Shown here one piece after another: positions 13,377-38,009 of a DNA stretch of 64,000 nucleotides. The translations under genes and the position numbers were made by a program. The stretch comes from Nitrospirota bacterium (GTDB taxonomy: Bacteria > Nitrospirota > JACRHJ01), in contig JAJYHX010000001.1 in assembly GCA_021784575.1 (NCBI GenBank), positions 539,995 to 603,994 on the forward strand. The letters are read 5' to 3'. A model generated the notes under the pieces. That model ran no database searches. It saw only the letters and a program-made list of their open reading frames with translations, and had not been told where the DNA came from. Every line of letters starts with the position of its first letter. Position 1 is the first letter of the stretch.

Positions 13377-14483
13377 ATGAGAGTCTCAGCGATAAAAAAC
13401 GCGGTATTGGTTTTCCTGATATGCGCCCTGTGTTGTCTTGTTTTTCCAGCCGCCTCTTCCGCCGCACAGACAGGCTTTGTCACGGGCAGGGTCATGTTCC
13501 ACGCGAAGCCTATGCCGGGCGCTTCGGTATATGCATATACCGACCCGGCAGACCTCTTCAGAAAGGAGTCCGCGCCGTCCGTGATAAGCGGCCCCGACGG
13601 CACGTTCAAAATGAAGCTCGCACGCGGGTCTTTTTATCTCGCGGCAATGAAAAAACTTACCGGGCCCGGCAAGGATGCCGCCGGTCGACCTGTCCCAGGG
13701 GATCTCTACGCCTTCTACGGCGGGAACCCCGTCATGATCGACCCGTTCAGGACTGCGAAGATAACCATAAACCTGATGGTAAAACCGAAAAACCGGAAAT
13801 CCGCGCCTTGCGAATTAAAAGGAAAAGGCGGCGTCGAGGGAACCGTCACGCTCGACGGCAAACCTCTCGACGGCGTTACGCTTTACATTTACCTCGACTC
13901 CAACAGCTCCTTCAGGGGCCTCGGATATTACATGTCCCCGCCTACCGGCGTGGATGGCCGCTTCAAAATGAGGATGAACGAGGGGACGTATTACCTTGTG
14001 GCGAGGAAGCGGATGAACAGGGAGGTTACGGGCCCGCTTAAGGCGGGGGATTACTACGGCTATCTGGATACGAACCCCCTCGTGGTGCGCAAGGGAAAGG
14101 TGTTGCGCGTCGAGTTCCCGGTGATGATGAAAGTGGAAAAGGCCGCGCCGGGCGGGCAGGGCTTTACCATCGTCTCCGGGACCATAAAGGACAAAAGCGG
14201 GAAGCCGCTTAAAGGTATGTACGCCTGCCTGTATAAGAACGACACGATGACCAACCGGCCAGCGATAGTCTCCGGCAAGACCGGCGCGGACGGGGTTTTT
14301 CGCCTGGAAGTGCCGTTTTCCGGCAAATATTATCTCGGTGCAAGGAGTGTCCTCGGCAAGCCCGTTGACAACGGCCAGTACTGGGGGCGCTACGACGGAA
14401 ACCCCGACCATTCCGTGGTCATCGTAGCCGGGAAGACGGTCGGCGGCCTCGACATAACGGCAGACATTGTGGGCGGGAAATGA
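13377..14483 (+). CDS. exported protein with 3 transthyretin/CarboxypepD_reg-like repeats
   Basis: 368 aa with a signal peptide and three ~110-aa units, each with a G.V...GKP..G..VY.Y core plus YYLVARKR...GPL.AGDYYGY..NP. Confidence 0.75.
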   Translation: MRVSAIKNAVLVFLICALCCLVFPAASSAAQTGFVTGRVMFHAKPMPGASVYAYTDPADLFRKESAPSVISGPDGTFKMKLARGSFYLAAMKKLTGPGKDAAGRPVPGDLYAFYGGNPVMIDPFRTAKITINLMVKPKNRKSAPCELKGKGGVEGTVTLDGKPLDGVTLYIYLDSNSSFRGLGYYMSPPTGVDGRFKMRMNEGTYYLVARKRMNREVTGPLKAGDYYGYLDTNPLVVRKGKVLRVEFPVMMKVEKAAPGGQGFTIVSGTIKDKSGKPLKGMYACLYKNDTMTNRPAIVSGKTGADGVFRLEVPFSGKYYLGARSVLGKPVDNGQYWGRYDGNPDHSVVIVAGKTVGGLDITADIVGGK

Positions 14484-16474
14484 CAGGTGCGGGACGACAA
14501 TCATTAACGACATGGATGTTCGTAATATTTTTCGCCTTTTCCCTTCCGCTTTCCGCGTCTGCCGCGGGACCTGCCGTATATAATAAATCCAATTCCACCA
14601 TAACAAAAGATACCACCTGGAGCGGGACGGTTCTGGTGGATTGCGTGGTGTTCGTGCCGGATGGCGTGACGCTGAAAGTCGCGCCCGGAACCACCGTGCT
14701 CTTCAAAAAAATCGCCGCGCCGCCCGGAAACGCCCGGGAATCGTCCCGGATTCTAATTCCCGGAAGCGGTATACGGGTCGAAGGGAAGATTATAGCCGAG
14801 GGCGAAAAAGGCAGGGAAATAACCCTTACCTCCGCCGAGAAGACGCCCAAACCGGGCGACTGGGGCTGTGTTTTTATTGACCACTCCGCGGGAAATGTTT
14901 TTTCCCGGTGCCGGTTTATGTATTCCGCGTATACGATTCACGCGCACTTCTCGCGCCTGTCCGTTTCCCGCTGTGTCATCACGAAAAACATCGACGGGAG
15001 CCGCCTTGGAATTTGCAGGGCGAGCTTCGATCACTGCAACATAAAAAATAACTCCGGCAAGGGGCTGAACTTCTGGCAATCGAAGGTCGATGTGACATTC
15101 TGTAACATTACGGGCAACTGGGACGGGATATTTTTAAACGCAAAGGACTCCGCCTGCAACATCGAGCACAATAATATCTGCGGCAATCGCGGGATGAATT
15201 TGCGTCTTGGGGATTTCCACAAGGACAACATAAAGCTCTCCGAGGACTGGTGGGGGGCGGCGGATCCGGCGAAAATCAGAAAGAAAATCTACGACAAGGC
15301 CCAAGACCCGGCGGTAGGCAGGGCGGATATTATACTTCCGCTCTCGCGGGAAGTCCTTGGCGCGGGGCCTGACGGGCCCGGGATAAAAATAAAGTGGAAG
15401 TTCAAGGCCGGTGCATATGTCGACGGCGGCGCGGTGGAGGCTAACGGCGCGGTATATTTCGGCTCGTGGGACAAAAACTTCTATGCCGTCCGCGCGGACG
15501 ACGGCAGGTTAATCTGGAAATTCGACGCCGGGGACTGCGTGGACTCTACCCCGGCGATTGCGGACGGGAATGTCTATTTCGGTTCCTGGAACCGGTATAT
15601 CTACTGCCTGAACGAAAAAAACGGGAAACTTGTCTGGAAATTCCGCATGCCGCCAAGCAACTTCGACGACCATCGGCAGGCGTCGCCGGTTGTTTATGAC
15701 AACGTGGTTTATATGGGCGGGTTCAATGGGGTTATTTACGCCCTGAATGCCGAAACCGGCGGGAAAATATGGGAATTCAAAACCCACGGGCCTGTCCGGA
15801 GCAGGCTTCTTCTGTCTTCGTGGGCGTCGCCCGGCATTAAGCCGCAAGGCAAGCTTCCATGTATTTATTTCGGTTCCGGCGACAAGTTCTTGTATTCGCT
15901 TGGGCTTGCCGACGCTCATGTGTGCCGGGAGATCAAAACCGGCGGCGCCGTTCTCAGCTCTCCCGCCTTCGACAACACGAAAACCACGGCCTCCTGCGTT
16001 TATTTCGGCTCCGCGGACGGCAAAGTCTATTGTTTTAACGAGGTTACCGGGCAAATCCTATGGGAATACGACACCCACTCCATAATTGTATATTCCTCTC
16101 CTTTAATCCTCGCCAATCTCGTCTGCATCGGCGATTGCGCCGGGACACTCAACGCCGTGGATAAAAATACCGGCAAGGCTGTCTGGAAATTCACCGGAGG
16201 GGGTGTCATATATTCGTCACCCGTGGCGGCCCGGGCTGGTCGACCGGCGGCGGGGGCCACATCGGGCCGTGCTGTCGAAGTGGCTTCAGGAGCGAAAATA
16301 CTTTACGGAGACAACTCCGGCGATGTATACTGTCTCAATCCTAACACCGGGGGATTGCTGGCTTTTTTCAAGGCCGGCAACGCCGTGCAGAACATTACGG
16401 CCAGCCCCGGCGGGGCTACGGTATACGCTTCTTCCCGTGACGGTTATCTCTATGCCCTGACGGTTTTGGAGTAG
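14480..16474 (+). CDS. exported fusion protein: NosD-like right-handed beta-helix + PQQ/BamB-like beta-propeller
   Basis: 664 aa, with an ATGA overlap with the previous gene and a signal peptide. The N-terminal module is TTWSGTVLV...LKVAPGTTVLF...PGDWG, followed by beta-helix turns and DWWGAADPAKIRKKIYDK. The C-terminal repeats are of the GAVYFGSWDKNFYAV..DGRLIWKF type. Confidence 0.75.
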   Translation: MTGAGRQSLTTWMFVIFFAFSLPLSASAAGPAVYNKSNSTITKDTTWSGTVLVDCVVFVPDGVTLKVAPGTTVLFKKIAAPPGNARESSRILIPGSGIRVEGKIIAEGEKGREITLTSAEKTPKPGDWGCVFIDHSAGNVFSRCRFMYSAYTIHAHFSRLSVSRCVITKNIDGSRLGICRASFDHCNIKNNSGKGLNFWQSKVDVTFCNITGNWDGIFLNAKDSACNIEHNNICGNRGMNLRLGDFHKDNIKLSEDWWGAADPAKIRKKIYDKAQDPAVGRADIILPLSREVLGAGPDGPGIKIKWKFKAGAYVDGGAVEANGAVYFGSWDKNFYAVRADDGRLIWKFDAGDCVDSTPAIADGNVYFGSWNRYIYCLNEKNGKLVWKFRMPPSNFDDHRQASPVVYDNVVYMGGFNGVIYALNAETGGKIWEFKTHGPVRSRLLLSSWASPGIKPQGKLPCIYFGSGDKFLYSLGLADAHVCREIKTGGAVLSSPAFDNTKTTASCVYFGSADGKVYCFNEVTGQILWEYDTHSIIVYSSPLILANLVCIGDCAGTLNAVDKNTGKAVWKFTGGGVIYSSPVAARAGRPAAGATSGRAVEVASGAKILYGDNSGDVYCLNPNTGGLLAFFKAGNAVQNITASPGGATVYASSRDGYLYALTVLE

Positions 16475-16482
16475 TAATTTCA

Positions 16483-16498
16483 GGGCACGGAAATTGCA
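16483..16498 (+). promoter_or_regulatory. sigma-54 (-24/-12) promoter
   Basis: GGGCACGGAAATTGCA is a near-consensus GGCACG-N4-TTGCA. It lies 72 nt upstream of the ATG at 16570. Confidence 0.7.
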
Positions 16499-16569
16499 TT
16501 TCACGATAGAGTTGGCGTGTTCTGGAAGAAACATTTGAAGAAACATTTAAGGTATAAGCGGGCTTTTTT

Positions 16570-17970
16570 ATGGATTTCCGGTTTTTAAAATTTTCTTTTG
16601 CCGCGGCGGGGTTTGTTGCGGCATTAATTTCCTCTTCTGCCGCCGCGGACATGGCGGTAAACCAGCCTATTGTTTTAAGCAAGGATACAGTCTGGTCGGG
16701 GAGGGTGAGCGTCGTGCAGGCGGTGAAAGTGCCCAAGAAGGTTAAGCTAAGGATAATGCCGGGGACGATGATAAAGTTCGGCGACAAGGCGGGGCTGACC
16801 GTCGAAGGAGTCCTGAAGGCGGCGGGGACGAAGTCCGCTCCGATTACCTTCACGTCTGTGGACAAGTCCCCAGTGGATGGGTGCTGGCCGGGCATAAACT
16901 TCAGCGAATCTGGAAAAGGCTCCGAGCTTAAGAGGTGCGTAATCTCCTATGCCGCTTCGATAAGCATAGACTCCTGCTCGCCGGAGATTAAAAACTGCAC
17001 GATTACACAGGGCCGGCAGGGAATAGAGCTTGCGAGAAAGGCAAAGCCGGTGATTTCCGGGAATACCATCCGGGACATTGCCGGATCTGGCATAAGCTGC
17101 CAGATGGGCTCATTCCCGACCATAGCCGGGAACACCATAGCCGGGTGCAGGCAATACGGCATTTTTTCTTCCCAGAATGCGGAGCCGCTTATAAAAAACA
17201 ATACCATTACCGGCTGCGATACCGGAATATCCGTCCAGGCGGCCCAGATCATAGAGGGAAACGTAATAAAAGACAGCAAGTGCGGCCTGTTCGCCAGCAT
17301 CGCCGGGAATGTCTTTGCCATCAAGGGCAACCGTTTCATAAACAGCGTAACGGGCGCGGTATGCCAGCAGTATACCTCTCCGGTATTCGAGAAAAACGAG
17401 TTTACGGGGAACAAGGAGGGCCTGGTGTGCTTCCGGGCGTCCAGCCCTCTTGTAAAAAACAACGATTTTTACAAGAACAAGAAAGCGATTCTCTGCATCC
17501 AGATATCCCACCCGACCATCACCGCCAACAACATACACGACAACGGCAAAGGGATATACCTGCATCTCTCATCCTACGCCCTGATAAACGGCAATAACAT
17601 CTGGGACAACAAAATCCAGGTGGAGCTCGGCAACATGTCGTCGGACTGGGAGCGCCGGGTCAAGAATAAGCCGACAAGGGGGCGCCAGGCCCAGAATATC
17701 AACATGGTAAGCCGGGCAAAGGCGGTGCCTGAAAAGCTGAGCGACGGGGCGAAGATAATGGGCAGCGTGGACGCCACCGGCAACTGGTGGGGCGCGGACG
17801 TTACGCGGGAAATGGACAGCAAGGGGCCGCAGGCAAACATAAAAAGCCTCATAGACGGTTACGACCGCCCGACGCGCACCTACAAAGGCTACTCCGGCGT
17901 ATACCTCGAAGACCGCATAAATTACAGAGGCTGGAAAAAGACAAGAATAAAAGACGCCGGGATTAATTAG
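16570..17970 (+). CDS. exported right-handed parallel beta-helix (NosD-like) protein
   Basis: 466 aa with a signal peptide, the shared N-terminal module (DTVWSGRVSV...LRIMPGTMIKF...ITFTS), many ~23-aa beta-helix turns (I.GN.I...) and NWWGADV near the C-terminus. Confidence 0.8.
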   Translation: MDFRFLKFSFAAAGFVAALISSSAAADMAVNQPIVLSKDTVWSGRVSVVQAVKVPKKVKLRIMPGTMIKFGDKAGLTVEGVLKAAGTKSAPITFTSVDKSPVDGCWPGINFSESGKGSELKRCVISYAASISIDSCSPEIKNCTITQGRQGIELARKAKPVISGNTIRDIAGSGISCQMGSFPTIAGNTIAGCRQYGIFSSQNAEPLIKNNTITGCDTGISVQAAQIIEGNVIKDSKCGLFASIAGNVFAIKGNRFINSVTGAVCQQYTSPVFEKNEFTGNKEGLVCFRASSPLVKNNDFYKNKKAILCIQISHPTITANNIHDNGKGIYLHLSSYALINGNNIWDNKIQVELGNMSSDWERRVKNKPTRGRQAQNINMVSRAKAVPEKLSDGAKIMGSVDATGNWWGADVTREMDSKGPQANIKSLIDGYDRPTRTYKGYSGVYLEDRINYRGWKKTRIKDAGIN

Positions 17971-18002
17971 AAAAATTGGGTCATTCCGAAAGGGGTTTAT
18001 TG

Positions 18003-19076
18003 ATGAGACGCTTCCTGTTTTTTTGCGCCGCCCTGTTTTTGCTGCCCTGCAACTCCTTTGCCGCGGGCATGATAAGCGGGAAGGTAAACTGCGAGGGAAA
18101 ACCGCTTGACGGGGCGTATGTATATCTCTACTCGAAGTCTGATACCGGGTTTAAGGGGCCGGCGGATTACAAGGCCGGGCCGACCAAGAACAAAGGCTCT
18201 TTCAGCATCTCCGCGGCCAAGGGCAGATACTACCTCATCGCAAAGAAACCGGTAAACGGGACGCTGGATAACCCCGCCGACGGGGATTACTACGCCTACT
18301 ACGGCGGGAATCCGGTGGTAGTCGGCGACGGCGAGACGATTAACATCGGCATAAACTGCTCGCCAATCCTTGCTGCTGCCGCAAAAAAGCCCGGCGGCAC
18401 GGGCATCCGGGGCCAGGTCTTCTTCGGCGGCAAGCCCCTCGACCGGGCGCGCGTTACGCTCTACCAGGACGACAGCACAATATTCCGGGGCATCGGCTAC
18501 GCCTCCATCCTCACTAACCAGAAAGGCCAGTTCGCCTTCTCGCTTGGGCCCGGAGCTTATTACGTCGTCGCGAGGAAACGCTTGGCAGGGGACAGCATGG
18601 GCCCGCTTGGCGTGGGCGACCAGTTCGGGTTCTCTCCGGATAACCCCGTGACGGTGGAAAAGGGAAGCTATACCATCATATCCATAAACTGCGTCAAAAA
18701 GCTTGTGAAAGTCAAAAAAGGCGGGCAGGAACTTACGCTCGGCGGGACGGTGAAGTCCGGCGAGACGGTGGTGCAAGGCAGGATTACCGACAAGAGCGGG
18801 AAACCTGTCGCCGGGGTATATGCGAGCGCGTACAGGGACTCGATGATGACCATGAAGCCGGACTTCATATCGAAGATGACAGGCCCGGACGGGATGTATT
18901 CCATAAGCCTCTCCGGGGGCGGCGTTTATTATATCGGCGCGCGCAACACCATAGGCGGCCCCGCCGAAAAAGGAGACCTCCTGGGGCGCTACGCCGGAAA
19001 CGACGACCACTCCGTAAAACTGAAGACCGGGGACAAGCTAAATAACATAGACATCGTCGTGGAGAAAGTTCAATAG
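18003..19076 (+). CDS. exported protein with 3 transthyretin/CarboxypepD_reg-like repeats
   Basis: Trimmed to the ATG at 18003 (MRRFLFFCAALFLLPCNSFAAG). Three repeat units carry YYLIAKK / YYVVARKR / YYIGARN and GD.Y(A/G).YGGNP-type motifs. Confidence 0.75.
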   Translation: MRRFLFFCAALFLLPCNSFAAGMISGKVNCEGKPLDGAYVYLYSKSDTGFKGPADYKAGPTKNKGSFSISAAKGRYYLIAKKPVNGTLDNPADGDYYAYYGGNPVVVGDGETINIGINCSPILAAAAKKPGGTGIRGQVFFGGKPLDRARVTLYQDDSTIFRGIGYASILTNQKGQFAFSLGPGAYYVVARKRLAGDSMGPLGVGDQFGFSPDNPVTVEKGSYTIISINCVKKLVKVKKGGQELTLGGTVKSGETVVQGRITDKSGKPVAGVYASAYRDSMMTMKPDFISKMTGPDGMYSISLSGGGVYYIGARNTIGGPAEKGDLLGRYAGNDDHSVKLKTGDKLNNIDIVVEKVQ

Positions 19077-19083
19077 GGGCTAT

Positions 19084-20241
19084 ATGAATAAATATCTCGT
19101 TTTTGCTCTGGCCGCTTTCTTCATGGTCCTGCCGTCCGCGGCCCTTGCGGGCACGGCGCCGAAACCGGACAGCTGGACAGGCTTCGAGGGCCGCGTGGTG
19201 TGCGACAGCCAGGTGTTCCAGGGCGCGCGCGTATATGTCTACAAGAGCTTCAAAGACATGCTGGCAGACAAGCCCACGGCCGTTTCCGCCCCGACGAAAG
19301 AAGACGGAAGCTGGAAGATGGACTGCCCGCCCGGGACATACTATCTCGCGGCCAAGCAGCTCGCCAAAGCCCCCGCAACCGGCGCGCCTGCCGCGGGAAA
19401 CTCCGGCGAAGTCCTTGGATACGATGGGCCGCTTTCCGTCGGGGACTACTTCTGTTTCCAGGGCAGCAACCCCATAACGGCGGTGCGGGGGAAATACACG
19501 CATGTCGGCTTTGCGCTCGTGAAATATGCGGCATCCGTCTCGTATTCGGATTCGAGCGACAAGGACAACGGCACCCTTACCGGCACCGTTACATGGAGCG
19601 GGCAGCCCCTCAAGGGCGCGATAGTCACGCTTTATATGGACGACAAGGACAACTTCCGGGGCCAGGGTTATTCCGCCTCGCCCCCGACCGGGAAAGACGG
19701 CAAATTCGACATGGAATTCCTGCCGGACACCGATTACTTCCTTATAGCCAGAAAACGGCAGAACGGCAAGAAGGCAGGCCCGTTGAAGGAAGGTGATTAC
19801 TTCGGATATTACGTTGCGAACCCGGTACACGTAAAGGCCGGCAAGGTGGCAACGGTTGATTTCGGAGTAATATCCAAGGCCGGTGAGATAGGCAGGGAAG
19901 ACAGCCTGTTCAGGGATACCGGGACGCATATCACCGGCAGGATACTGGACGACAAGGGCAGGCCGGTCAAGGGAGTTTATGCCTTCGCATACGTGGAGAA
20001 GGTGATGGCGCACAAGAGGCCGGAATTCATCTCCAGGCCCGCGGATAAAAGTGGAGTATACGTCCTGAACATCTCCAAGGGCGGGACATATTACATAGGC
20101 GCCCGTTCGAGATACGGCGGCACGCCCTCCTTCGGCGAGTGGTACGGCTGCTACGAAGGCGCAGGCGACCATCACGTGAATATAAAGACCGGCCAGGTTC
20201 TGAAGGGTATAGACATCCCCGTGGAGAAAATACCTCAATGA
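19084..20241 (+). CDS. exported protein with 3 transthyretin/CarboxypepD_reg-like repeats
   Basis: 385 aa with a signal peptide, paralogous to 13377..14483 and 18003..19076 (YFLIARKRQNGKKAGPLKEGDYFGYYVANPV). Confidence 0.75.
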   Translation: MNKYLVFALAAFFMVLPSAALAGTAPKPDSWTGFEGRVVCDSQVFQGARVYVYKSFKDMLADKPTAVSAPTKEDGSWKMDCPPGTYYLAAKQLAKAPATGAPAAGNSGEVLGYDGPLSVGDYFCFQGSNPITAVRGKYTHVGFALVKYAASVSYSDSSDKDNGTLTGTVTWSGQPLKGAIVTLYMDDKDNFRGQGYSASPPTGKDGKFDMEFLPDTDYFLIARKRQNGKKAGPLKEGDYFGYYVANPVHVKAGKVATVDFGVISKAGEIGREDSLFRDTGTHITGRILDDKGRPVKGVYAFAYVEKVMAHKRPEFISRPADKSGVYVLNISKGGTYYIGARSRYGGTPSFGEWYGCYEGAGDHHVNIKTGQVLKGIDIPVEKIPQ

Positions 20242-21170: not shown

Positions 21171-22103
21171 GTGAAAAAGTTCGGCAGGCGCGATTTTATA
21201 AAAGGCGCGGCGTCCTGTTCCGCCGCCGCGGGACTGAACCTTATCGAGGGCATAGACCCGCTCGGCCTGGTGTCGGAGGCGTTCGCGGGGACGGTCAGGC
21301 CCGTGATAGCAGTGGCGTCTAATAAGACGCCGGAGGCCCTGACGCGCGCGGCGGTAAACGCTATAGGAGGGATGGGAAAATTTGTAAAGCGCGGCGAGGT
21401 GGTCGTTGTAAAGCCGAATATCGGCTGGGACAGGGTCCCGGCGCAGGCGGCCAATACAAACCCTGACGTCGTGAAGACCGTAGTCATGATGTGCCTTGAG
21501 GCCGGGGCGAAAAAGGTGCGCGTGTTCGACAGGCCGTGCAACGACCCCCGCCGGTGCTACTACAGAAGCGGCATACAGGGCGCTGTGGAGTCCATTGGGA
21601 ATCCGGCTGCGGTAATCGAATTCGTGGACGACAGGAAGTTCGAGATACTCCCCATAAAGAACAGCACGACAATTCCGAGCTGGTCGTTCTATAAGCCCGC
21701 GTTTGAGGCGGACAAACTGATAAACGTGCCGATTGCCAAGCACCATAACGCCGCCCGGCTCACCATGACCCTGAAGAACGTGATGGGGCTTCTCGGCGGG
21801 AACAGGGGGAACATACACCACGACCTTGACATCGATATAGCCGAACTGAATACCGTCGTAAAGTTCAACCTCCATATCCTCGACGCCGTGAGGATTCTTA
21901 CGGCAAACGGCCCTCAGGGCGGACGCCTTCGGGATGTTAAGGCAATGAACAAGGTTATGGCGGGCACGGACCCCGTGGCTGTCGACTCTTACGGCGCGAC
22001 CCTCTTCGGCATAACGGGATACGACGTGCCGCACGTTGTGTATGCGCACAAGCTGGGAGAGGGAGAGATTGACCTGAAAAAGGTCCGGGTGATAAACGTC
22101 TGA
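21171..22103 (+). CDS. Tat-exported DUF362 domain protein
   Basis: 310 aa with a GTG start after GGAGGAG and the twin-arginine signal GRRDFIKGAA. The DUF362-like core is VVVKPNIGWDR...NTNPDVV...VFDRPCND. Confidence 0.7.
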   Translation: MKKFGRRDFIKGAASCSAAAGLNLIEGIDPLGLVSEAFAGTVRPVIAVASNKTPEALTRAAVNAIGGMGKFVKRGEVVVVKPNIGWDRVPAQAANTNPDVVKTVVMMCLEAGAKKVRVFDRPCNDPRRCYYRSGIQGAVESIGNPAAVIEFVDDRKFEILPIKNSTTIPSWSFYKPAFEADKLINVPIAKHHNAARLTMTLKNVMGLLGGNRGNIHHDLDIDIAELNTVVKFNLHILDAVRILTANGPQGGRLRDVKAMNKVMAGTDPVAVDSYGATLFGITGYDVPHVVYAHKLGEGEIDLKKVRVINV

Positions 22104-27866: not shown

Positions 27867-27901
27867 GAGGCAGGTGGGAGAGGTTCCATCTGCCTCTTTT
27901 T
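27867..27901 (+). terminator. rho-independent terminator
   Basis: GAGGCAG (27867-27873) pairs with CTGCCTC (27890-27896), followed by TTTTT. Confidence 0.6.
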
Positions 27902-27920
27902 GCAAGCATGAAGGGAAAAT

Positions 27921-28673
27921 ATGAAAAAACACCTGTTCCTGGCGGCCGCGGTTTTGCTTGTTATTTCCGCCTGCGCGCATAAAAACGATCTCTACGGCAT
28001 GAGACGTCCGGGGGTTGTAAAAGGAGCGCTTACGGACGAGGCCGGGAAGCCGCTCGCGGGAGCGGAGGTATATTTTTATGTCAGTTCGGAGCGCAAGTTC
28101 AGAAGCCCGGCTGATTTCATGGCGGAACCGACGGGGCCGGACGGCGAATATTACACGGAGGTGCCTCCTGGAAAGTATTATGTCGTCGCCAGGAAACGCA
28201 TGTCCGGGAGCATGTCCGGGAACCTCAAGAAAGGAGACTTGTATACCCCGGACGCAGTCCGGATTGATGTCCGTCAAGGGGGAACCTATAAGATAGACCT
28301 CTCCCTGTATGTTTTCTCCGGAAACATGCTCTTCTCCGGCAGCGTCGGAAGGCAGGGCATACGCGGCATTATAACGGACAGGAGCGGGAAGCCGTTCAGC
28401 CAGGCGTATGCCTTTGCATACAAGGACGCGAGGATGGTGGGCAGGCCGGATTTCGTCTCAGGATGGAGCAGGAAGGACGGGAAGTTCGTGATATACGTGG
28501 ACAAGCCCGGAAAATATTATATCGGCGCGCGCACCGGTCTGATGGGCGCGCCGGGGCCGGACGAGCCTTACGGTAAATACAGGGGAAGCCGCGACCACTC
28601 CGTAACCGTCAAGGACGGCGCCTTCACGGGCGGGATAAATATCAGGCTCGGCAGGTTTTCGGATGAGAGATAG
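27921..28673 (+). CDS. lipoprotein with 2 transthyretin/CarboxypepD_reg-like repeats
   Basis: 250 aa with the lipobox LLVISAC. It carries YYVVARKRMSGSMSGNLKKGDLY and a terminal repeat of the same subtype as the other four paralogues (GIITDRSGKPFSQAYAFAYKD...GKYYIGAR...YGKYRGSRDHSVTVKDG). Confidence 0.75.
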   Translation: MKKHLFLAAAVLLVISACAHKNDLYGMRRPGVVKGALTDEAGKPLAGAEVYFYVSSERKFRSPADFMAEPTGPDGEYYTEVPPGKYYVVARKRMSGSMSGNLKKGDLYTPDAVRIDVRQGGTYKIDLSLYVFSGNMLFSGSVGRQGIRGIITDRSGKPFSQAYAFAYKDARMVGRPDFVSGWSRKDGKFVIYVDKPGKYYIGARTGLMGAPGPDEPYGKYRGSRDHSVTVKDGAFTGGINIRLGRFSDER

Positions 28674-29984: not shown

Positions 29985-31522
29985 TGCATTTCGGCCTCAG
30001 GACCAAGGTAATAACGTTCGCATCCTGCCTGGTTGTCGCGATAATCGGGATAAACGCGGCGGTAATGCTCCATACCGAGAAGACCGACAGCAAAAAACAG
30101 CTCGAGGAGCAGGGGAAACTCTTCGCCAAGCTTACCGCCACGGAAGTCGTCCATACTTACGGCTCGCTGTCCTGGGAATCCGGCGGAAAGCAGGACGTCC
30201 GGACGCAGATGCTGAAGTTCTTCAGATACTACCCGGACCTTGTCCGGCTCACGATTATCAGCCAGTCCGGGCTTATACTATGGGATTCGGGCGGCGCTCC
30301 GGGACATACCCCGGTTGTGGACGAAGCGCTCCTGAAAAGGCTTCCCTCGAACGGGATCGATACTGAAAAATACTACGGGCCGGACGGCGAGGAGTATATG
30401 GATATCCTGGCCCCCGCCGCGGAAAACGGCGGGCCGCAGTTCCTGAAGGTCAGGTATATCATATCCTACCGTTCGCTGAAACAACGGCTTGTAGGCATAA
30501 GGAAGCAGTTCCTGCTCCTGACCGTTATCTTCATGTTCGTTGGCGTGTTTACGGCGGCTGCCTTTGCGGCAAAGCTCATAAACCCGATACTTGCCCTGAA
30601 GGAAAGCGCCCGCGCGATAGAAGGAGGCGACCTGGACCAGGCGGTTGAGCTTGACCGCGAGGACGAGCTCGGCGAGCTTGGCCGGTCGTTTAATTCTATG
30701 GCAGGCGCGTTGAAGGGGCACAGGCGCGACCTGGAGGAGGCGAACAGGAACCTCCTGGCCGCGAACGAGGAGCTGAGGCTCCTCCAGACGGAGCTTGTCC
30801 GCTCCGAGAGGATGGCCGCGGTGGGCCAGCTTGCGGCGGGGCTTTCCCACGAGATAGACAACCCTATCGGCGTGATAATGGGTTTTGCGGAGCTTTTGCT
30901 GGAAGACACGCCTCCTGAAGACCCAAGGCGCGAAGACCTTGCCAGGATACTGGACGAGAGCAGGCGCTGCAAACGCATTGTCAGGGGACTGCTCGATTTC
31001 TCTCGCCCTCCGGCCCTCGGAGTCGTGCCGACCGACCTTGCGGAGGCGCTTGGCCAGACGGTCGAAGCCGCGAAGACACAGAGACTTTTTCGGGATGTGA
31101 GGATAAACCTTGATAGTTCCCCCGTCCCGAAAGTAATGGCCGACCCGGACAGGCTGAGGCAGGTATTTATGAACCTTATGATAAACTCCGCCCAGGCGAT
31201 GCCGGACGGCGGGAATATAGACATAAAACTCCGGCATGAGGAGGCGGCGGGTGAAGTGCGGATATCTTTCTGCGACAGCGGCCCCGGAATAAGTCCCGAA
31301 AACATGGAAAGGATTTTCGAGCCTTTCTATACCACCAAACGACCGGGCGAGGGAACGGGGCTGGGGCTTCCGATATGCGTCCGGCTCCTTGAAGAGCATG
31401 GAGGCAGGGTTTGGGTGGAAAGCGCCTCCGGGAAGGGCGCGACATTCACCGTTTCGCTCCCGGACGGGCAGATTTCCGATGAAGTCCCCGGAGAGACTGA
31501 CGGAACAGGCGAAAATTCTTGA
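29984..31522 (+). CDS. sensor histidine kinase (periplasmic sensor, HAMP, HisKA, HATPase)
   Basis: Start is the ATG at 29984 (or TTG at 29981), overlapping the ResB stop. It has two TM helices, a HAMP domain, the H-box SHEIDNPIGVI, the N-box NLMINSAQAM, and the G-boxes DSGPGI and GTGLGLPI. Confidence 0.85.
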   Translation: MHFGLRTKVITFASCLVVAIIGINAAVMLHTEKTDSKKQLEEQGKLFAKLTATEVVHTYGSLSWESGGKQDVRTQMLKFFRYYPDLVRLTIISQSGLILWDSGGAPGHTPVVDEALLKRLPSNGIDTEKYYGPDGEEYMDILAPAAENGGPQFLKVRYIISYRSLKQRLVGIRKQFLLLTVIFMFVGVFTAAAFAAKLINPILALKESARAIEGGDLDQAVELDREDELGELGRSFNSMAGALKGHRRDLEEANRNLLAANEELRLLQTELVRSERMAAVGQLAAGLSHEIDNPIGVIMGFAELLLEDTPPEDPRREDLARILDESRRCKRIVRGLLDFSRPPALGVVPTDLAEALGQTVEAAKTQRLFRDVRINLDSSPVPKVMADPDRLRQVFMNLMINSAQAMPDGGNIDIKLRHEEAAGEVRISFCDSGPGISPENMERIFEPFYTTKRPGEGTGLGLPICVRLLEEHGGRVWVESASGKGATFTVSLPDGQISDEVPGETDGTGENS

Positions 31523-31545
31523 GCGCCGCCCGGAATTGAAATATA

Positions 31546-31644
31546 ATGGGAAAGCTTAAAAGGCGCTGTGGTTATAAAACCTGTATTTGCAGAATATGTG
31601 ATTGCAATTTGCTTTGCCCGCGCAGAACGAGAAAGCTGAATTAA
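31546..31644 (+). CDS. candidate 32-aa basic, six-cysteine peptide (below the ORF-track threshold)
   Basis: The ATG..TAA ORF reads MGKLKRRCGYKTCICRICDCNLLCPRRTRKLN and fills 99 of the 126 intergenic nt. Its stop lies 4 nt before the regulator ATG, which has no SD of its own. The ORF itself has no clear SD. Confidence 0.35.
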   Translation: MGKLKRRCGYKTCICRICDCNLLCPRRTRKLN

Positions 31645-31648
31645 TTAA

Positions 31649-33034
31649 ATGCCTGACATAAGGATACTGGTCGTAGACGACGAGCCTGGAATGCGCAGCC
31701 TGCTGAGCCGGGTGCTGGCCAAGAGCGGGTATTCCGTAAGCGCGTTCGAGAAAGGGGCGGATGCGCTCGAATCCATAAACTCGGAAGACTATGATCTTGC
31801 AATCCTCGATATCGAGATGCCGTCCATGAACGGCATCGAGCTTTTAAAGAAAATCAAGATAAAAGACCCGTCCCTGTCCGTCGTGATGATAACCGCCTAC
31901 GGCTCGCTCCAGTCCGCCGTGGAGGCGATGCGTCTGGGGGCGTACGATTACTTGAGCAAGCCCTTCGAGATGGAGGAGATAAAGCACGTAGTCGGGAAGG
32001 CTCTGGAGCGCGAGCGGCTGATACGGGAGAACCGTGAGCTTCACAAGGAACTGGAGGAACAATACCGTTTTACGGGCATAGTGGGCAAAAGCCCCAGGAT
32101 GGAAGAGGTCTACGAGCTTGTAAACCAGGTGGCGGCGACCAACGCAAGCGTCCTGATACAGGGCGAATCCGGCACCGGCAAGGAGCTCGTGGCCCGCTCT
32201 ATTCATTACAACAGCAGGCGGAAGGGCCAGCCGCTCGTGATACTCAACTGCGCCGCGCTCGCCGAGGGGGTGCTGGAATCAGAGCTTTTCGGCCATGAAA
32301 AGGGCGCCTTTACGGGCGCGATAAAGCGAAAGGCCGGGCGTTTCGAGCTGGCGCACGAAGGCACGATTTTCCTGGACGAGATAGGCGAGATACCGATTTC
32401 CACGCAGTTGAAGCTCCTCAGGGTATTGCAGGAGCACGAGTTCGAGCGGGTAGGCGGAGAGAAGACGATAAAGGTTGACGTCCGGATTATCGCCGCGACG
32501 AACAAGGACCTCATGGAGGCCGTAAAAGAGGGACGTTTCCGGGAAGACCTGTACTACCGCCTGAATGTCGTAAACATAAGCATCCCGCCGCTCAGGGAGA
32601 GGAAAGACGACATCCCCGGTCTTGCCGAGCACTTTCTTGCGAAGTTTTCCGGGGAGACGGGCAAGAAAGTCGAAGGCATAGAACCCGCCGCCATGGACAT
32701 GCTTACGCGCTACGACTGGCCTGGAAACGTCCGGGAACTGGAGAACATAATAGAGCGCGCGGTGGTGCTCGAAAAGAGCGAGACGGTTACTCCTTCGAGC
32801 CTGCCTCTTACGCTTCGCCATGAGGCCGGGGACGCGGACGTCGTAAAGCTTCCGGAAGGCGGCGGGACACTGACCGATGTCCTGGAGGAACTCGAAAGAC
32901 AGCTTATTGTCAAGGCTCTGAAAGAAAAAAGCGGCTCGCAGACCGCGGCGGCGGCGGCCCTGGGTCTTAAACGCAGCACGCTTCGCTATAAACTGGAAAA
33001 ATACGGGCTTGTATCGGCGGAACTCTCTGAATAG
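31649..33034 (+). CDS. sigma-54-dependent response regulator (NtrC family)
   Basis: 461 aa with an REC domain (ILVVDDEPG, DLAILDIEMP), an AAA+ domain with GESGTGKE and the GAFTGA loop (ELFGHEKGAFTGA), and a C-terminal HTH (AAAALGLKRSTLRYKLEKYGL). Confidence 0.9.
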   Translation: MPDIRILVVDDEPGMRSLLSRVLAKSGYSVSAFEKGADALESINSEDYDLAILDIEMPSMNGIELLKKIKIKDPSLSVVMITAYGSLQSAVEAMRLGAYDYLSKPFEMEEIKHVVGKALERERLIRENRELHKELEEQYRFTGIVGKSPRMEEVYELVNQVAATNASVLIQGESGTGKELVARSIHYNSRRKGQPLVILNCAALAEGVLESELFGHEKGAFTGAIKRKAGRFELAHEGTIFLDEIGEIPISTQLKLLRVLQEHEFERVGGEKTIKVDVRIIAATNKDLMEAVKEGRFREDLYYRLNVVNISIPPLRERKDDIPGLAEHFLAKFSGETGKKVEGIEPAAMDMLTRYDWPGNVRELENIIERAVVLEKSETVTPSSLPLTLRHEAGDADVVKLPEGGGTLTDVLEELERQLIVKALKEKSGSQTAAAAALGLKRSTLRYKLEKYGLVSAELSE

Positions 33035-33738: not shown

Positions 33739-34653
33739 ATGGTACAGGACTTCTTGAGCAACTTGCAGGGCAGTGGTATGGCGGGGTTTTATATCGCGGC
33801 GTTTATCCTGGGCGCATTTCACGCGCTCGAACCCGGGCACGGGAAGACCGTTGTCGCGGCGTATCTCATCGGCTCAAAGGCGAAGGTTTACGAGGCGTTT
33901 GTGCTCGGAGTCATTGTAACCTTCACGCATACCTTCAGCATAATTGTCCTGGCAATCCTGGCGAGGTTTTTCGCCGAGAGGTTCACCGGTCTGCAACTGC
34001 ATATTTATCTTGGTTTTGCCGCGGCGGCCATGATACTCGGCGTCGGCCTCTCCATGATATGGACACGTTTCCGGGCCTTGAGAAGGCATATACGTCACCG
34101 CAATGAACATGCCGACGCCCATGACCATGAACACGAGCATGACCATGATCACGAGCATGACCACGAACACGAGCACGTGCATGATGAACATTCTCATATG
34201 CATTCCGACCATTACCATGACCACGACCATGACCACGACCATGACCATGAGCATGACCATGAGCACGACCACGAGCATCCTCATGCGCATTCCCACGGAG
34301 GGTTTTCCCATACGCACTATGTTCCGGGGCCGGGCGAGGAACCCTCGCTATGGAAGCTGTTTCTGCTTGGCATATCAGGCGGCATCGTGCCCTGTCCTGC
34401 GGCCTTCGCCCTTCTTCTCGCGGCTGTTTCCGCAGGCGCCGTTGCCAAAGGCTTAAGCCTCGTGATAGTCTTTTCGCTCGGCCTGGCGTTTGCGCTGATT
34501 ACCATAGGCGTAGGCGTTGTCAAGACGGCGGGGTTTGCCGGCAGGTTCATGGATATGGAAAAGGCGGCGCCGTACATATCGCTTGCGAGCGCCGTGCTTG
34601 TGACGCTTATAGGCGTCGCGACATTGTACGGCTCGATAATGCATGTAATTTAA
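33739..34653 (+). CDS. RcnA/NicO-like nickel/cobalt-type transporter with a His-rich loop
   Basis: 304 aa with the signature FHALEPGHGK in TM1, a central loop of about 79 aa holding about 34 His (HDHEHEHDHDHEHDHEHEH...), and further TM helices including GGIVPCPAA. Confidence 0.75.
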   Translation: MVQDFLSNLQGSGMAGFYIAAFILGAFHALEPGHGKTVVAAYLIGSKAKVYEAFVLGVIVTFTHTFSIIVLAILARFFAERFTGLQLHIYLGFAAAAMILGVGLSMIWTRFRALRRHIRHRNEHADAHDHEHEHDHDHEHDHEHEHVHDEHSHMHSDHYHDHDHDHDHDHEHDHEHDHEHPHAHSHGGFSHTHYVPGPGEEPSLWKLFLLGISGGIVPCPAAFALLLAAVSAGAVAKGLSLVIVFSLGLAFALITIGVGVVKTAGFAGRFMDMEKAAPYISLASAVLVTLIGVATLYGSIMHVI

Positions 34654-35809: not shown

Positions 35810-36205
35810 ATGAGATTAATCTTTCTTCTGTTTTTTATTCTGACGTTAATACCTGCTCCGGCCTTCGCGCACTATACTGGGGAGCTGCTGCCGGATTCGG
35901 TCGCGGTCATGGAATATCAGATGATTATCAGTATGCAGCCGAACGACATGTTGACCAGGAACAAGCTTGGTATGGTGTATCTCAGGCAGAACAAGCTGGA
36001 TAAGGCAAAAGAGCAATTTCTGGAAATATTGAAGATAGACCCGAAAAATTTCGACGCCCTGGACAGCCTCGGCATTGTCTCAAGCAGGCTTGGAGACCCT
36101 TCGCAGGCGGTGGCTTGGTACGAAAGGGCGCTCAAGATAAAGAACGACAATGGTTGCAGGCAGCGGTTCCTGGCGGAAAAGGCCTTGCTGAAGGCGAAAA
36201 AATAA
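35810..36205 (+). CDS. exported TPR-repeat protein
   Basis: 131 aa with a signal peptide and TPR helices (NKLGMVYLRQNKLDKAKEQFLEILKIDPKNFDALDSLGIV...AVAWYERALKI). Confidence 0.7.
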   Translation: MRLIFLLFFILTLIPAPAFAHYTGELLPDSVAVMEYQMIISMQPNDMLTRNKLGMVYLRQNKLDKAKEQFLEILKIDPKNFDALDSLGIVSSRLGDPSQAVAWYERALKIKNDNGCRQRFLAEKALLKAKK

Positions 36206-37215: not shown

Positions 37216-38009
37216 AAAAGATCGCAATCATAGCGGCTGTCGTCGCCGCAGTCTTGTTCTCCGCGCGGGTCCGCGCAGGTACGCTTGAGGCGAACGCCGT
37301 CTGGACGGGAACGGTAAAGGTGTCGGGCCGGTTATTGGTGAAGCCCGGCGTGACCCTTAAAATCGAGCCGGGGACGGTTGTGAAATTTGTCCCGGCGAAG
37401 CCGGACGATACCGGGCTCGCGCAGTGCGGTATGCTGATACTTGGGACGATAATAGCGGACGGACGGCCCGGCGCGAGGATAAGATTTACCTCGGCGGCGC
37501 AAAGGCCCAGGCCGGGAGACTGGGGAGAGATCCAGATTATAAGGAGCAAGGGAAGCTCTTTTACGGACTGCGACTTCCGCTTTGGCGGATGGGGACTTCA
37601 TATGCATCACACGAAGATAAAAATCTCCGGCTGCACCTTCATGCGCAACCGTTTCGGAGGCATTCGCGGAAAGGGCGGCAGGGTTGAGATTGCCGGCTGC
37701 ATACTCAAGGGGATGCACATAGGCATACGTTACCTAAGCGGCGGGCCGTATATCCACAACAGCGATATAACGGACGACAGGACCGGGATATTCTGGCGCC
37801 AGGGATGCAATCCAAGGATCAAATATAATAACTTCCAGGGCAACAGGGATTACGACATAAAGCTCGGCGAGTTGCAGTCCGGCAATATAGACGCCCGCCT
37901 GAACTGGTGGGGAGACGGAAGACCGAAGCTCTACGACCGTCATCGGGAGAGTTATATCGGCAGGGTCATTACGAAACCGGCGCTTTCGGCCAGGGCAAAA
38001 ATAAACTGA
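37212..38009 (+). CDS. exported beta-helix (NosD-like) protein, short form
   Basis: 265 aa with an ATGA overlap and a signal peptide. It has the module AVWTGTVKVSG...LKIEPGTVVKF...IRFTSAAQRPRPGDWG and the tail LNWWGDGRPKLYDRHRESYIGRVITKP. Confidence 0.75.
   Translation: MKKIAIIAAVVAAVLFSARVRAGTLEANAVWTGTVKVSGRLLVKPGVTLKIEPGTVVKFVPAKPDDTGLAQCGMLILGTIIADGRPGARIRFTSAAQRPRPGDWGEIQIIRSKGSSFTDCDFRFGGWGLHMHHTKIKISGCTFMRNRFGGIRGKGGRVEIAGCILKGMHIGIRYLSGGPYIHNSDITDDRTGIFWRQGCNPRIKYNNFQGNRDYDIKLGELQSGNIDARLNWWGDGRPKLYDRHRESYIGRVITKPALSARAKIN

Follow-up and report, generated by a model that had tools for sequence, protein, structure and literature searches.

Seven genes in the 64,000-nucleotide stretch of DNA analysed here (the window) encode beta-helix proteins, BH1 to BH7, with similar N-terminal modules (N-modules) and, in most, similar C-terminal tails, which raises the question of whether these ends are homologous parts of one family and of what such a set of paralogues does at a single locus. 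All seven plus-strand ORFs are present at the starts given in an initial annotation of this DNA (Table 1), and a signal-peptide-like hydrophobic stretch can be read at the N-terminus of each, as had been claimed; likewise read from the sequence, BH6 has a TTG start codon with a Shine-Dalgarno AAGGAGG 7 nt upstream, and a LASC lipobox. A six-frame scan of the whole window recovered seven N-modules and six tails, no others, the BH2 tail being divergent, in agreement with the sharing first described. The seven N-modules align with 12 invariant columns, and BLASTP with the module alone gave significant matches for 21 of 21 pairs (E-values of 8e-5 to 2e-17, computed at a database size of 1e8 residues; 32–45% identity), while the middle rungs were only 24–29% identical and mostly non-significant; the best alignment thus lies outside the repetitive turns, which disposes of the concern that the paralogues might align poorly there. 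Leave-one-out HMMs recovered all seven modules (E ≤ 1e-17, Z = 1e6) and five of the six tails (E between 1e-17 and 2e-6), the exception being that of BH2 (E = 0.38), which keeps NWWG and ...YD and contains insertions. BH4 has no tail, and since the next gene begins 4 nt past its stop codon there is no space for a decayed one. Module-to-tail spacing varies from 102 to 275 residues, bearing out the variable number of turns noted earlier, and the number of rungs between the two ends is the sole variable part of this cassette. In BH1 the tail is followed by a PQQ/BamB-like beta-propeller, an architecture kept, propeller included, in two related loci (L131 and L132).

Table 1. Features of the window (BH, beta-helix; CPR, CarboxypepD_reg/DUF4198-like).
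Feature	Position	Strand	Details
PhnD-like binding protein	5259-6179	+	module C
TPR-like protein	6181-6699	+	172 aa; module C
YedE-family putative selenium transporter	6680-7759	+	TIGR04112 383.7 vs 200
Cysteine desulfurase family protein (SclA-like)	7938-9143	+	TIGR01977 463.8 vs 377; SclA runner-up
Module A partner genes	10660..20241	+	interleaved with BH1-3; order kept in L131-L133
CPR0	10660-11505	+	
FG-GAP/ASPIC protein	11533-13185	+	module A
CPR1	13377-14483	+	
BH1	14480-16474	+	664 aa; signal peptide, N-module, HAH site, tail, C-terminal beta-propeller
BH1 N-module; HAH site; tail	14591-14881; 14939-14947; 15194-15367	+	
Sigma54-type -24/-12 promoter-like site	16483..16498	+	GGGCAC-N5-TTGCA, 72 nt upstream of BH2
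BH2	16570-17970	+	466 aa; 275-aa middle; no HxH patch; generic subtype
BH2 N-module; divergent tail	16669-16905; 17731-17961	+	
CPR2	about 18003-19076	+	
CPR3	19084-20241	+	
BH3	20238-21101	+	287 aa; N-module, QVH site, tail
BH3 N-module; QVH site; tail	20337-20600; 20658-20666; 20916-21092	+	
Module A redox block	21171..26736	+	adjoins BH3 orthologues in 3/3 loci
TAT-DUF362	21171-22103	+	redox block
FG-GAP	22103-23653	+	redox block
OpuAC-like	23667-24272	+	redox block
TAT-DUF362	24269-25174	+	redox block
NapH/NapG-like membrane polyferredoxin	25180-26736	+	redox block
HEAT-repeat protein	26932-27840	+	
CPR4	27921-28673	+	
ResB-like	28674-29984	+	
HAMP histidine kinase	29981-31522	+	
Sigma54-dependent response regulator	31649-33034	+	
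BH4	33067-33735	+	222 aa; N-module 33166-33462; no tail, no HxH
NicO/RcnA-like Ni/Co efflux-type transporter	33739..34653	+	153 bits, under cut-off of 195
BH5	34668-35786	+	372 aa; N-module, HMH site, tail
BH5 N-module; HMH site; tail	34746-35012; 35076-35084; 35586-35753	+	
Small TPR protein	35810..36205	+	between BH5 and BH6
BH6	36217-37215	+	332 aa; lipoprotein; N-module, HNH site, tail
BH6 N-module; HNH site; tail	36331-36642; 36700-36708; 37033-37209	+	N-module with disordered insertion
BH7	37212-38009	+	265 aa; N-module, HMH site, tail
BH7 N-module; HMH site; tail	37275-37541; 37599-37607; 37848-38006	+	
GeoRSP PqqD-family peptide chaperone	38021-38335	+	TIGR04302 107.8 vs cut-off 100
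GeoRSP radical SAM/SPASM protein	38322-39326	+	TIGR04303 455 vs cut-off 400

The products of the seven genes are exported right-handed parallel beta-helix proteins with a single domain and belong to one large cassette family, labelled Beta_helix_4, Beta_helix or NosD-like in Pfam. AlphaFold predicted a continuous beta-helix for both BH6 (pLDDT 88.9, pTM 0.83) and BH3 (pLDDT 93.9, pTM 0.88), and Foldseek searches with these models returned right-handed beta-helices exclusively, including AlgG, PL6 lyases and NosD. In the models the N-module forms the first strands, making it the N-terminal cap plus the first few rungs, and the tail is confidently ordered (pLDDT about 97–98), its NWWG turn, short helix and two short strands forming the C-terminal cap. 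The combination is not special to this locus, for the same end-caps delimit a cassette that occurs, with unrelated surroundings, in at least 20,843 protein clusters. Among these are giant proteins of 1,000–7,600 aa (annotated as ‘right-handed parallel beta-helix repeat-containing protein’; Pfam Beta_helix_4 + Beta_helix + NosD), in which 3–20 of the same module-rungs-tail units are fused in one polypeptide, several with the module, helix and tail repeated in that order in tandem; their consensus (908 module and 60 tail copies) matches that of the window proteins and the motifs of the initial annotation. The caveat that the ends might be generic to all NosD/Beta_helix proteins holds in that the cassette is very widespread irrespective of context, and fails in that neither module nor tail significantly matched any solved structure among PDB chains or any model in a local Pfam copy.

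Five of the seven proteins (BH1, 3, 5, 6 and 7) carry a conserved E-Y...(H/Q)xH...R patch, located on the two rungs that follow the cap; BH2 and BH4 lack this patch. In BH3 the pairs Q141/H143 and R162/S164 are invariant in 34 orthologues and lie one 21-residue rung apart on predicted strands, whose alternation suggests that the His pair is exposed and the patch solvent-facing. The motif G[ILFVM]HxH follows the module in 52% of locus-type cassettes versus 0.4% of 796 giant-protein modules. The full signature occurs in 198 of 393 unique locus-type cassettes, 72% of these 198 opening with E-Y and 69% having R or Q on the next rung, and the patch is also retained in distant Geobacterales. At least two subtypes, with and without the patch, fit the earlier idea of a graded set of specificities.

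The seven could be surface proteins with a structural or adhesive function, scaled-down forms of the giants that were expanded for surface variation or mineral attachment and are unconnected with what the neighbouring transporter and maturase genes do. Giant size with many copies of one cassette is typical of surface adhesins, the export of all seven fits, and so does a locus (L048) in which a three-cassette protein adjoins a 1,449-aa multihaem cytochrome. However, we regard this as unlikely: orthologues of each paralogue are kept at 50–89% identity, the opposite of rapid surface variation; the polar patch conserved in locus-type proteins is missing from the giants; and the predicted lipoprotein status of BH6 counts against it, as does tight linkage and translational coupling with CarboxypepD_reg-like (CPR), transporter and GeoRSP genes across phyla. 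Alternatively, they could be CASH beta-helix carbohydrate enzymes (epimerases or lyases) that remodel exopolysaccharide or envelope glycan, with the patch as active site. The top Foldseek matches to both models were the mannuronan C5-epimerases AlgG and AlgE4/AlgE6 and PL6 alginate lyases, beta-helices located in the periplasm or secreted, one face of which bears a catalytic patch; AlgE6 was also touched by profile, and invariant Glu, Tyr, His and Arg on one face resemble lyase/epimerase catalytic sets. These matches are nonetheless weak (best E = 5e-4, TM 0.3–0.47, 10–16% identity, different cap sequences) and reflect the shared fold, and no residue of catalytic character is invariant across all seven paralogues. 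Glycosyltransferase, polysaccharide export and sugar metabolism genes are absent from the window locus and about 70 related loci, where the conserved context is of transporters, redox proteins and a peptide maturase, making a glycan enzyme unlikely.

NosD calls for a closer comparison. A published account (PMC8457098) describes it as a carrier in the periplasm that is associated with a membrane transporter, its proposed role being to carry between that transporter and a periplasmic target, and describes NosR as an Fe-S electron donor in the membrane. If the seven were true NosD paralogues they would mature the Cu-S centre of nitrous oxide reductase. Like them, the NosD of NosDFY(L) is an exported right-handed beta-helix encoded with a NapH/NosR-like membrane polyferredoxin; the aromatic N-x-W-type turn that ends its helix (GNYWSD) aligns with NWWG; Pfam NosD (PF05048) scored above cut-off for four of the seven; and the best PDB sequence match was NosD 7o0y (E = 0.0017). 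However, the NCBIfam NosD model TIGR04247 gave at most 54 bits against a 300-bit cut-off, there is no NosZ, NosL or NosF/NosY ABC partner anywhere in the 64 kb, neither module nor tail matched NosD, which lacks the N-module and post-NWWG tail, and NosD ranked only 7th and 31st among Foldseek matches to the window models. The model score and missing partner genes contradict a NosD identity, which we find hardly credible; the distinction from bona fide NosD made at the outset was well founded.

In this Nitrospirota genome the BH genes fall into two conserved gene modules. BH1-3 lie with CPR and FG-GAP proteins, two TAT-exported DUF362 proteins and a NapH/NapG-like polyferredoxin (module A), and BH4-7 with ResB-like, RcnA-like and TPR proteins and the PqqD and radical SAM/SPASM pair of the GeoRSP system. 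In two loci (L132 and L133) module A has no GeoRSP genes within 10 kb of it, so the two modules may function independently of each other. The block between them (26932..33034) is syntenic in L002-L004 and L008, its response regulator being orthologous to that of L049 (617 bits). The RcnA-like transporter has a His/Asp/Glu-rich loop of about 60 residues, and Geobacteraceae-type loci have an ArsP_1 / SO_0444-like permease in its place. Start and stop codons overlap by 4 nt in CPR1/BH1, CPR3/BH3 and BH6/BH7, and these overlaps are the only hint that the seven might be subunits of one assembly, as had been suggested.

BH cassettes are core, previously unremarked parts of the uncharacterised radical-SAM GeoRSP system, on which a literature search found no paper. 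Among GeoRSP radical SAM loci with at least 4 kb of upstream sequence, 20 of 20 independent loci contained a cassette ORF versus none of six control radical SAM loci. The window PqqD and radical SAM genes exceed the cut-offs of the NCBIfam equivalogs TIGR04302 and TIGR04303, and the window neighbourhood matches that of GeoRSP loci in Geobacteraceae, Geoalkalibacter and Nitrospirota, which have a common core. BH4 corresponds to the BHa genes of minimal GeoRSP loci (likewise tail-less in L049 and L050), and BH5 is the orthologue of the BHb gene present in most (263–282 bits to BHb of L049/L050); module C (5259..9143) is orthologous to genes embedded in the same two loci (E = 1e-96 to 1e-122). 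BH, PqqD/radical SAM and YedE/desulfurase genes are thus associated across genomes. None of the GeoRSP models in NCBIfam covers the beta-helix, CPR, OpuAC-like, ResB-like or PhnD-like genes; YedE and the desulfurase instead have models of their own. Seven copies, against the one or two usual in the 20 loci, do represent an expansion at a single locus, and the window differs further in that a SPASM-only gene (TIGR04304) and a gene for a VHPC peptide, present in most GeoRSP loci, were not found in it. A constant neighbourhood of DUF362, polyferredoxin and repeat proteins had been anticipated; this stands for BH1-3 (three of three orthologous loci) and not for the BH5, BH6 and BH7 types, for which no DUF362/polyferredoxin link was seen in 40 genome loci beyond the closest Nitrospirota relatives of the window or in 20 metagenome GeoRSP loci. 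The constant partners of the latter types are CPR, OpuAC-like and ResB-like proteins, a metal permease, a YedE-type transporter and the GeoRSP PqqD/radical SAM pair, and many Desulfobulbia loci have BH5-, BH6- and CPR-type genes without a PqqD or radical SAM gene within 10 kb.

GeoRSP resembles PQQ and mycofactocin-type RiPP/peptide-cofactor systems in having a PqqD-family chaperone, a SPASM radical SAM enzyme (weaker matches of the window protein include MftC and PqqE) and a short precursor-like ORF, in this case a conserved one of 18–21 codons that ends in the reactive sequence VHPC and lies within or next to about 20 GeoRSP loci. It differs in that this ORF is unrelated in sequence to the PQQ and mycofactocin precursors and in that the system lies among genes for exported beta-helix proteins, transthyretin-like proteins and transporters. 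The BH proteins might themselves be the substrates that the radical SAM/SPASM enzyme cross-links or modifies, rather than partners of a modified peptide: the PqqD and radical SAM genes immediately follow BH6 and BH7, the window has no recognisable VHPC precursor, and a Cys just past the module is conserved in six of the seven paralogues. This seems to us highly improbable, since the VHPC ORF is what a PqqD-dependent maturase would typically act on, a cytoplasmic Fe-S enzyme is unlikely to target proteins exported through Sec, and module A cassettes occur without a radical SAM enzyme.

We favour the reading, to which we give a probability of roughly one half as a whole, that these capped beta-helix proteins of the GeoRSP system act as periplasmic carriers or scaffolds for chalcogen or metal species, NosD-like in role and not in family. 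The neighbouring putative selenium transporter YedE, cysteine desulfurase and RcnA-like or SO_0444-like permease provide the chalcogen/metal context. We propose that the E-Y...(H/Q)xH...R patch would bind a metal or chalcogen (Se or S) species, which might be attached to the radical-SAM-modified VHPC peptide or derive from it, and that the BH proteins would transfer this species between transporters in the membrane (YedE, RcnA-like) and partners in the periplasm, namely CPR proteins and the DUF362/polyferredoxin redox proteins, with patch-less BH2 and BH4 as putative structural or docking partners. The E/Y/H/R residues of the patch are as compatible with catalysis as with binding, and epimerases and lyases of polysaccharides give the best matches in fold, which counts against the carrier reading. 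Also counting against it are the missing patch in BH2 and BH4, the absence of VHPC and SPASM-only genes from the window, and the loci that have module A, or BH5-, BH6- and CPR-type genes, with no GeoRSP PqqD or radical SAM gene within 10 kb. YedE is a predicted selenium transporter in the literature, its role in selenium being purely a comparative-genomics prediction.

Sites similar to the sigma54-type one upstream of BH2 occur at 4936 (minus strand), 5167, 9423, 10611 and 33033, each preceding another operon of the locus (six in total), and of 19 matches seven are in promoter zones on the correct strand, which make up 2% of the search space, a comparison that ignores intergenic AT-richness. 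The two BH gene modules appear to share promoters of this type.

All seven beta-helix genes under study (BH1 to BH7) are present as ORFs at the starts first read for them (see table), BH6 beginning at a TTG codon with AAGGAGG upstream. Each product carries an N-terminal signal-peptide-like segment as read from its sequence, with a lipobox in BH6. The initial annotation had described a shared N-terminal module and an NWWG...YD C-terminal tail in these proteins, an observation that was borne out with one nuance, the divergent tail of BH2. An alignment of the seven proteins contained 12 invariant columns, all in the first ~130 residues, and the module alone was significantly similar in 21 of 21 pairs (E-values of 8e-5 to 2e-17, 32–45% identity), whereas the central rungs (24–29% identity between paralogues) mostly gave no significant match; the paralogues thus do not align poorly outside their beta-helix turns. 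Leave-one-out profiles recovered every module (E ≤ 1e-17) and five of six tails (E ≤ 2e-6; 0.38 for that of BH2), and a six-frame scan of the 64 kb found exactly seven modules and six tails, and it is therefore that we regard the shared architecture as confirmed. BH4 naturally lacks a tail, as do its counterparts elsewhere, and the module-to-tail spacing in the window paralogues is 102–275 residues. Two of the proteins have additional features: in BH1 the capped beta-helix is joined to a PQQ/BamB-like beta-propeller that makes up the C-terminal half, a fusion kept in two related loci (L131 and L132), and the BH3 N-module has a variable loop (residues about 70–85) reading FPWIDEDKNNIGDGE, modelled at high confidence and with W72, D74, G81, D82 and E84 invariant in 34 orthologues, which in sequence resembles an acidic DxDxDG-type Ca-binding loop.

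Coordinates of features in the window and of VHPC ORFs in related loci
Position	Strand	Feature
122-4918	-	Divergent operon
122-1993	-	MacB/FtsX ABC pair
2566-3699	-	Beta-propeller protein
3755-4918	-	TsuA/YeeE-like thiosulfate-type transporter
4936-4951	-	Sigma54-type -24/-12 site
5167-5182		Sigma54-type -24/-12 site
5259-9143		Module C
6680-7759		YedE family putative selenium transporter
7938-9143		TIGR01977 desulfurase
9423-9438		Sigma54-type -24/-12 site
10611-10626		Sigma54-type -24/-12 site
10660-11505		CPR0
13377-14483		CPR1
14480 (start)	+	BH1
15368-16474	+	Beta-propeller half of BH1
16483-16498		Sigma54-type -24/-12 site
16570 (start)	+	BH2
about 18003-19076		CPR2
19084-20241		CPR3
20238 (start)	+	BH3
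20445-20490	+	Variable loop of BH3
25180-26736		Polyferredoxin
27921-28673		CPR4
31649-33034		Sigma54-dependent response regulator
33033-33048		Sigma54-type -24/-12 site
33067 (start)	+	BH4
33739-34653		RcnA/NicO-type transporter
34668 (start)	+	BH5
36217 (start)	+	BH6
37212 (start)	+	BH7
38322-38335		Overlap of GeoRSP PqqD and radical SAM genes
40898-41920		Arsenite methyltransferase
L009:952, L010:1176, L013:1138, L022:13970, L046:4053, L049:11106, L050:11039		VHPC ORFs
L052:11016, L058:7134		VHPC ORFs, examples from about 13 further metagenome loci

An exhaustive search with the module profile matched 20,843 cluster representatives (E ≤ 1e-3), of which 6,541 also pass E ≤ 1e-10, the best matches being giant proteins (1,000–7,600 aa, 3–20 copies each), several of which have tandem repeats of module, rungs and tail. 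The consensus of 908 module copies (TLTIePG..F...V.GtL.A.GTa..PIvFTS...PapGdW) and of 60 tail copies (NWWGttDp..I..kIYD..dd) from these unrelated proteins reproduced both motifs of the initial annotation. No model in our local Pfam copy, which was without PF28492, covers the module or the tail; the Beta_helix and NosD models span the central rungs only, with six of the seven proteins passing the gathering threshold of PF13229 Beta_helix (25.9 bits; BH4 fails at 18.7) and BH2, BH3, BH5 and BH6 that of the PF05048 NosD domain (23.6 bits; BH1 at 22.4 and BH7 at 21.1 fall just below). PF28492 (Beta_helix_4) is precomputed on BH3 of the window (P0379), on most BH3, BH5 and BH6 orthologues and on an N-terminal fragment holding the module alone; it is absent from tail-only fragments and fails to match several proteins whose module is clear, and this newer Pfam family appears to track the N-terminal cap region. 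AlphaFold models of BH6 (pLDDT 88.9) and BH3 (pLDDT 93.9) are continuous right-handed beta-helices in which the module forms the N-terminal cap strands and first rungs, and the tail a confidently ordered C-terminal cap with a turn at NWWG, one short helix and a pair of short strands; module and tail are thus the conserved ends of a self-contained cassette with a variable number of rungs. They are not generic to all beta-helix proteins: PDB sequence searches with the module and with the tail gave noise, with no match to NosD, AlgG, a pectate lyase or any other solved chain (rows for polyubiquitin and HIV gp120 are summed sub-threshold stretches). The shared module and tail are a real but ordinary family signature, capping a beta-helix cassette that is common, and recognising them as such guards against over-reading elsewhere. 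The Foldseek matches are generic to the beta-helix fold, led by AlgG and PL6 lyases (best E = 5e-4, TM 0.3–0.47).

NosD itself (7o0y, 7osf) is among these structural matches, ranking 7th and 31st, and the paralogues resemble it in being exported right-handed parallel beta-helices, as judged from the models and the signal peptides read from sequence. Membership in the NosD family is nonetheless ruled out: the best score to NCBIfam NosD TIGR04247 is 54.2 bits (BH2) against a cut-off of 300, the others scoring at most 25 bits or not at all, and although the canonical nosRZDFYL cluster includes NosF, NosY, NosZ and NosL with NosD (PMC8457098), none of these four appears in the ORF annotation of the 64-kb window, whose sole ABC system is of the MacB/FtsX type. 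The only sequence echo is that the NWWG of the tail aligns with GNYWSD of NosD.

Neighbouring genes of the cassettes are members of GeoRSP, a radical SAM/SPASM and PqqD system which is widely distributed (Nitrospirota, Desulfobulbia, Geobacterales) and named in NCBIfam only. In the window, which comes from a Nitrospirota genome, the order of what we call module B is HEAT, CPR4, ResB-like, HK, sigma54-RR, BH4, NicO, BH5, TPR, BH6, BH7, PqqD, radical SAM (CPR0 to CPR4 being exported CarboxypepD_reg/DUF4198-like proteins). It is syntenic in close relatives, the BH6 counterpart in MAG JAJYJM01 sharing 89% identity, and dinB lies directly after the radical SAM gene, as in the closest relative (L003). 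The radical SAM/SPASM protein (TIGR04303, 455 bits vs a cut-off of 400) and the adjacent, overlapping PqqD (TIGR04302, 107.8 bits vs 100) are equivalog-level matches; the SPASM-only TIGR04304 has no window homologue apart from the radical SAM gene itself, and the SPASM-only protein of one related locus (L049) reaches just 100 bits vs its 300-bit cut-off. In radical SAM-centred loci of Geobacteraceae, Geoalkalibacter and metagenomes the partners were cassette beta-helix, CarboxypepD_reg/DUF4198-like, OpuAC-like, PhnD-like, ResB-like, ~180-aa TPR-like, YedE, SPASM-only and cysteine desulfurase genes, and a NicO or ArsP_1 permease. One or more cassette ORFs were present within 10 kb upstream of the radical SAM gene in 20 of 20 GeoRSP-type metagenome loci with at least 4 kb upstream (mean 1.4, maximum 2) and in none of six loci of other radical SAM families from the same scan; the window has four cassette genes within 6 kb upstream of its radical SAM gene and seven within 24 kb. 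The cassette–GeoRSP association is tight.

In or beside about 20 GeoRSP loci we found a conserved ORF of 18–21 codons, M(K/R)KYxKPxVVGSSNVHPC*, which in the Geoalkalibacter-type arrangement lies between the radical SAM and SPASM-only genes and is likely a precursor peptide for the GeoRSP maturase. Regex and profile searches did not detect it in the 64-kb window or in the related loci L002–L004 and L008 (best E about 2); its gene could be elsewhere on the 623-kb contig.

Module C of the window is orthologous to genes inside GeoRSP loci (E = 1e-96 to 1e-122). Its transporter is an equivalog-level member of the YedE family of putative selenium transporters (TIGR04112, 383.7 bits vs a cut-off of 200; 398.9 bits for the L049 orthologue), and the runner-up match of its desulfurase is the selenocysteine lyase SclA. 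Reviews give YedE as a predicted transporter only, and state that no high-affinity Se transporter has been identified (PMC9312934). The adjacent divergent operon, which has its own sigma54-like site at 4936, encodes a DUF4418 protein in addition to its transporter, beta-propeller and ABC genes.

The cassettes of the locus differ directly after the module, on the rungs that in five of the seven bear an E-Y...(H/Q)xH...R patch. BH1, BH5, BH6 and BH7 have G/T-[ILF]-H-x-H at this position and BH3 has L-Q-V-H, while BH2 and BH4 have the generic '...SSPEI' version, as in the giant proteins. In the BH6-homologue set, 52% of modules are followed by G[ILFVM]HxH, vs 0.4% of 796 giant-protein modules, and x[YFW]xxxG[ILFVM][HQ]xH.[STA] is found in 198 of 393 unique locus-type cassettes, 72% of these 198 having E-Y at the start and 69% an Arg or Gln at the stacked next-rung position. 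In BH3, residues E134, Y135, Q141, H143, R162 and S164 do not vary among 34 orthologues, and its model places the Q141/H143 and R162/S164 strands exactly one rung apart; from the hydrophobic/polar alternation, both His residues probably face solvent. Locus-type cassettes fall into two subtypes, and each minimal GeoRSP locus combines a single gene without the patch (BHa) and a single gene with it (BHb).

We infer that the patch-bearing proteins may be periplasmic binding or carrier proteins for chalcogen or metal species, akin to NosD in this proposed role and not in family; the carried species would possibly be linked to the radical-SAM-modified peptide, and the proteins would cooperate with membrane transporters, with the transthyretin-like CPR proteins and with a polyferredoxin/DUF362 redox branch linked to quinol. 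The first of two main rivals, a glycan-active enzyme, is compatible with the fold matches and with the E/Y/H/R residues; it fits the conserved gene context less well than does the carrier reading, as does the second, a structural surface role. In its full form the carrier reading has the HxH-type cassettes, CPR partners, YedE-type transporter, SclA-like lyase, metal permease and GeoRSP maturase with its VHPC peptide making up a periplasmic pathway dedicated to the capture, reduction and trafficking of Se or another chalcogen or metalloid, with the beta-helix proteins as NosD-like carriers; this is speculative, and we put its probability at roughly 15%. Reviews say that a high-affinity system for handling selenium has yet to be identified (PMC9312934); if real, the pathway would be a candidate for it.

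Our literature search, within the library covered, returned no paper on GeoRSP and nothing relevant on Beta_helix_4/PF28492, and an exact look-up no record of the BH6 product or the Geopsychrobacter radical SAM protein. What the analysis adds is that the cassettes, above all the HxH subtype, are a core part of this unpublished system, that a YedE-type putative selenium transporter is linked to it, and that it includes a candidate precursor peptide. The extended list of components (beta-helix proteins with caps and a conserved His-containing surface patch, transthyretin-like partners, solute-binding-like proteins of two kinds, a ResB-like protein, a metal permease, the YedE-type transporter, an SclA-like lyase and the candidate peptide ending VHPC) opens an anonymous system to concrete experiments, and is a possible way in to the periplasmic acquisition or detoxification of selenium, sulfur and metal species by anaerobes.

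Module A, with the order CPR0, FG-GAP, CPR1, BH1, BH2, CPR2, CPR3, BH3, DUF362, FG-GAP, OpuAC, DUF362, NapH/NapG-like polyferredoxin, is conserved around BH3 orthologues in three of three loci, in two of them without nearby GeoRSP genes. The suggested link of the family to DUF362 and polyferredoxin genes therefore holds for BH1–3; it does not extend to the BH5, BH6 and BH7 types. Two TAT-signal DUF362 proteins precede the polyferredoxin, in which a NapH-like membrane part carrying two Fer4_5 CX3CP motifs is fused to a multi-cluster domain of NapG-like type; its match to NosR is weak and partial. The five exported CPR paralogues are expanded alongside the beta-helix genes: in most related loci a CPR gene comes next after the BH5-type gene, and 4-nt overlaps join CPR1/BH1, CPR3/BH3 and BH6/BH7.

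Six operon starts of the locus each have a sigma54-type promoter-like site (GG-N10-GC core) a short way upstream, an arrangement compatible with control by the sigma54-dependent response regulator encoded in the locus. The motif total in the window is not above chance (19 vs 21 expected) and placement alone is informative, 7 of the 19 matches falling within 2% of the search space; this placement, taken with the regulator, whose orthologue is found in L049, suggests that the locus operons form one regulon. Neither Rfam nor tRNA scans gave any hit in the window.

Several further observations concern the wider neighbourhood. The RcnA/NicO-type transporter has a ~60-residue loop that is almost wholly His, Asp and Glu (HDHEHEHDHDHEH...), and Geobacteraceae-type loci have an ArsP_1 / SO_0444-like permease and a cupin in its place. 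A link to the nickel-sulfur fibres of cable bacteria, considered in view of the many Desulfobulbaceae matches and the Ni/Co-type transporter, was dropped with nothing in its support. The arsenite methyltransferase (310 bits vs 263) just past the locus occupies a position where relatives (downstream in L001 and L002) have ArsR, ACR3, ArsD, ArsA and ArsC genes, which may reflect lineage synteny and not a functional link. In a Geobacteraceae MAG (L048:1-5237), a GeoRSP locus is headed by a multihaem cytochrome (1,449 aa, MtrC/OmcA-like domain), followed by a three-cassette beta-helix protein of 826 aa with three modules, two tails and two HxH sites. Lastly, in some Nitrospirota (L001, L005 and L006) a BH6 orthologue (67% identity) stands alone beside dinB, and none of the locus's remaining genes is within 10 kb, so proteins of the BH6 type can be retained where the remainder of the system is not close by.
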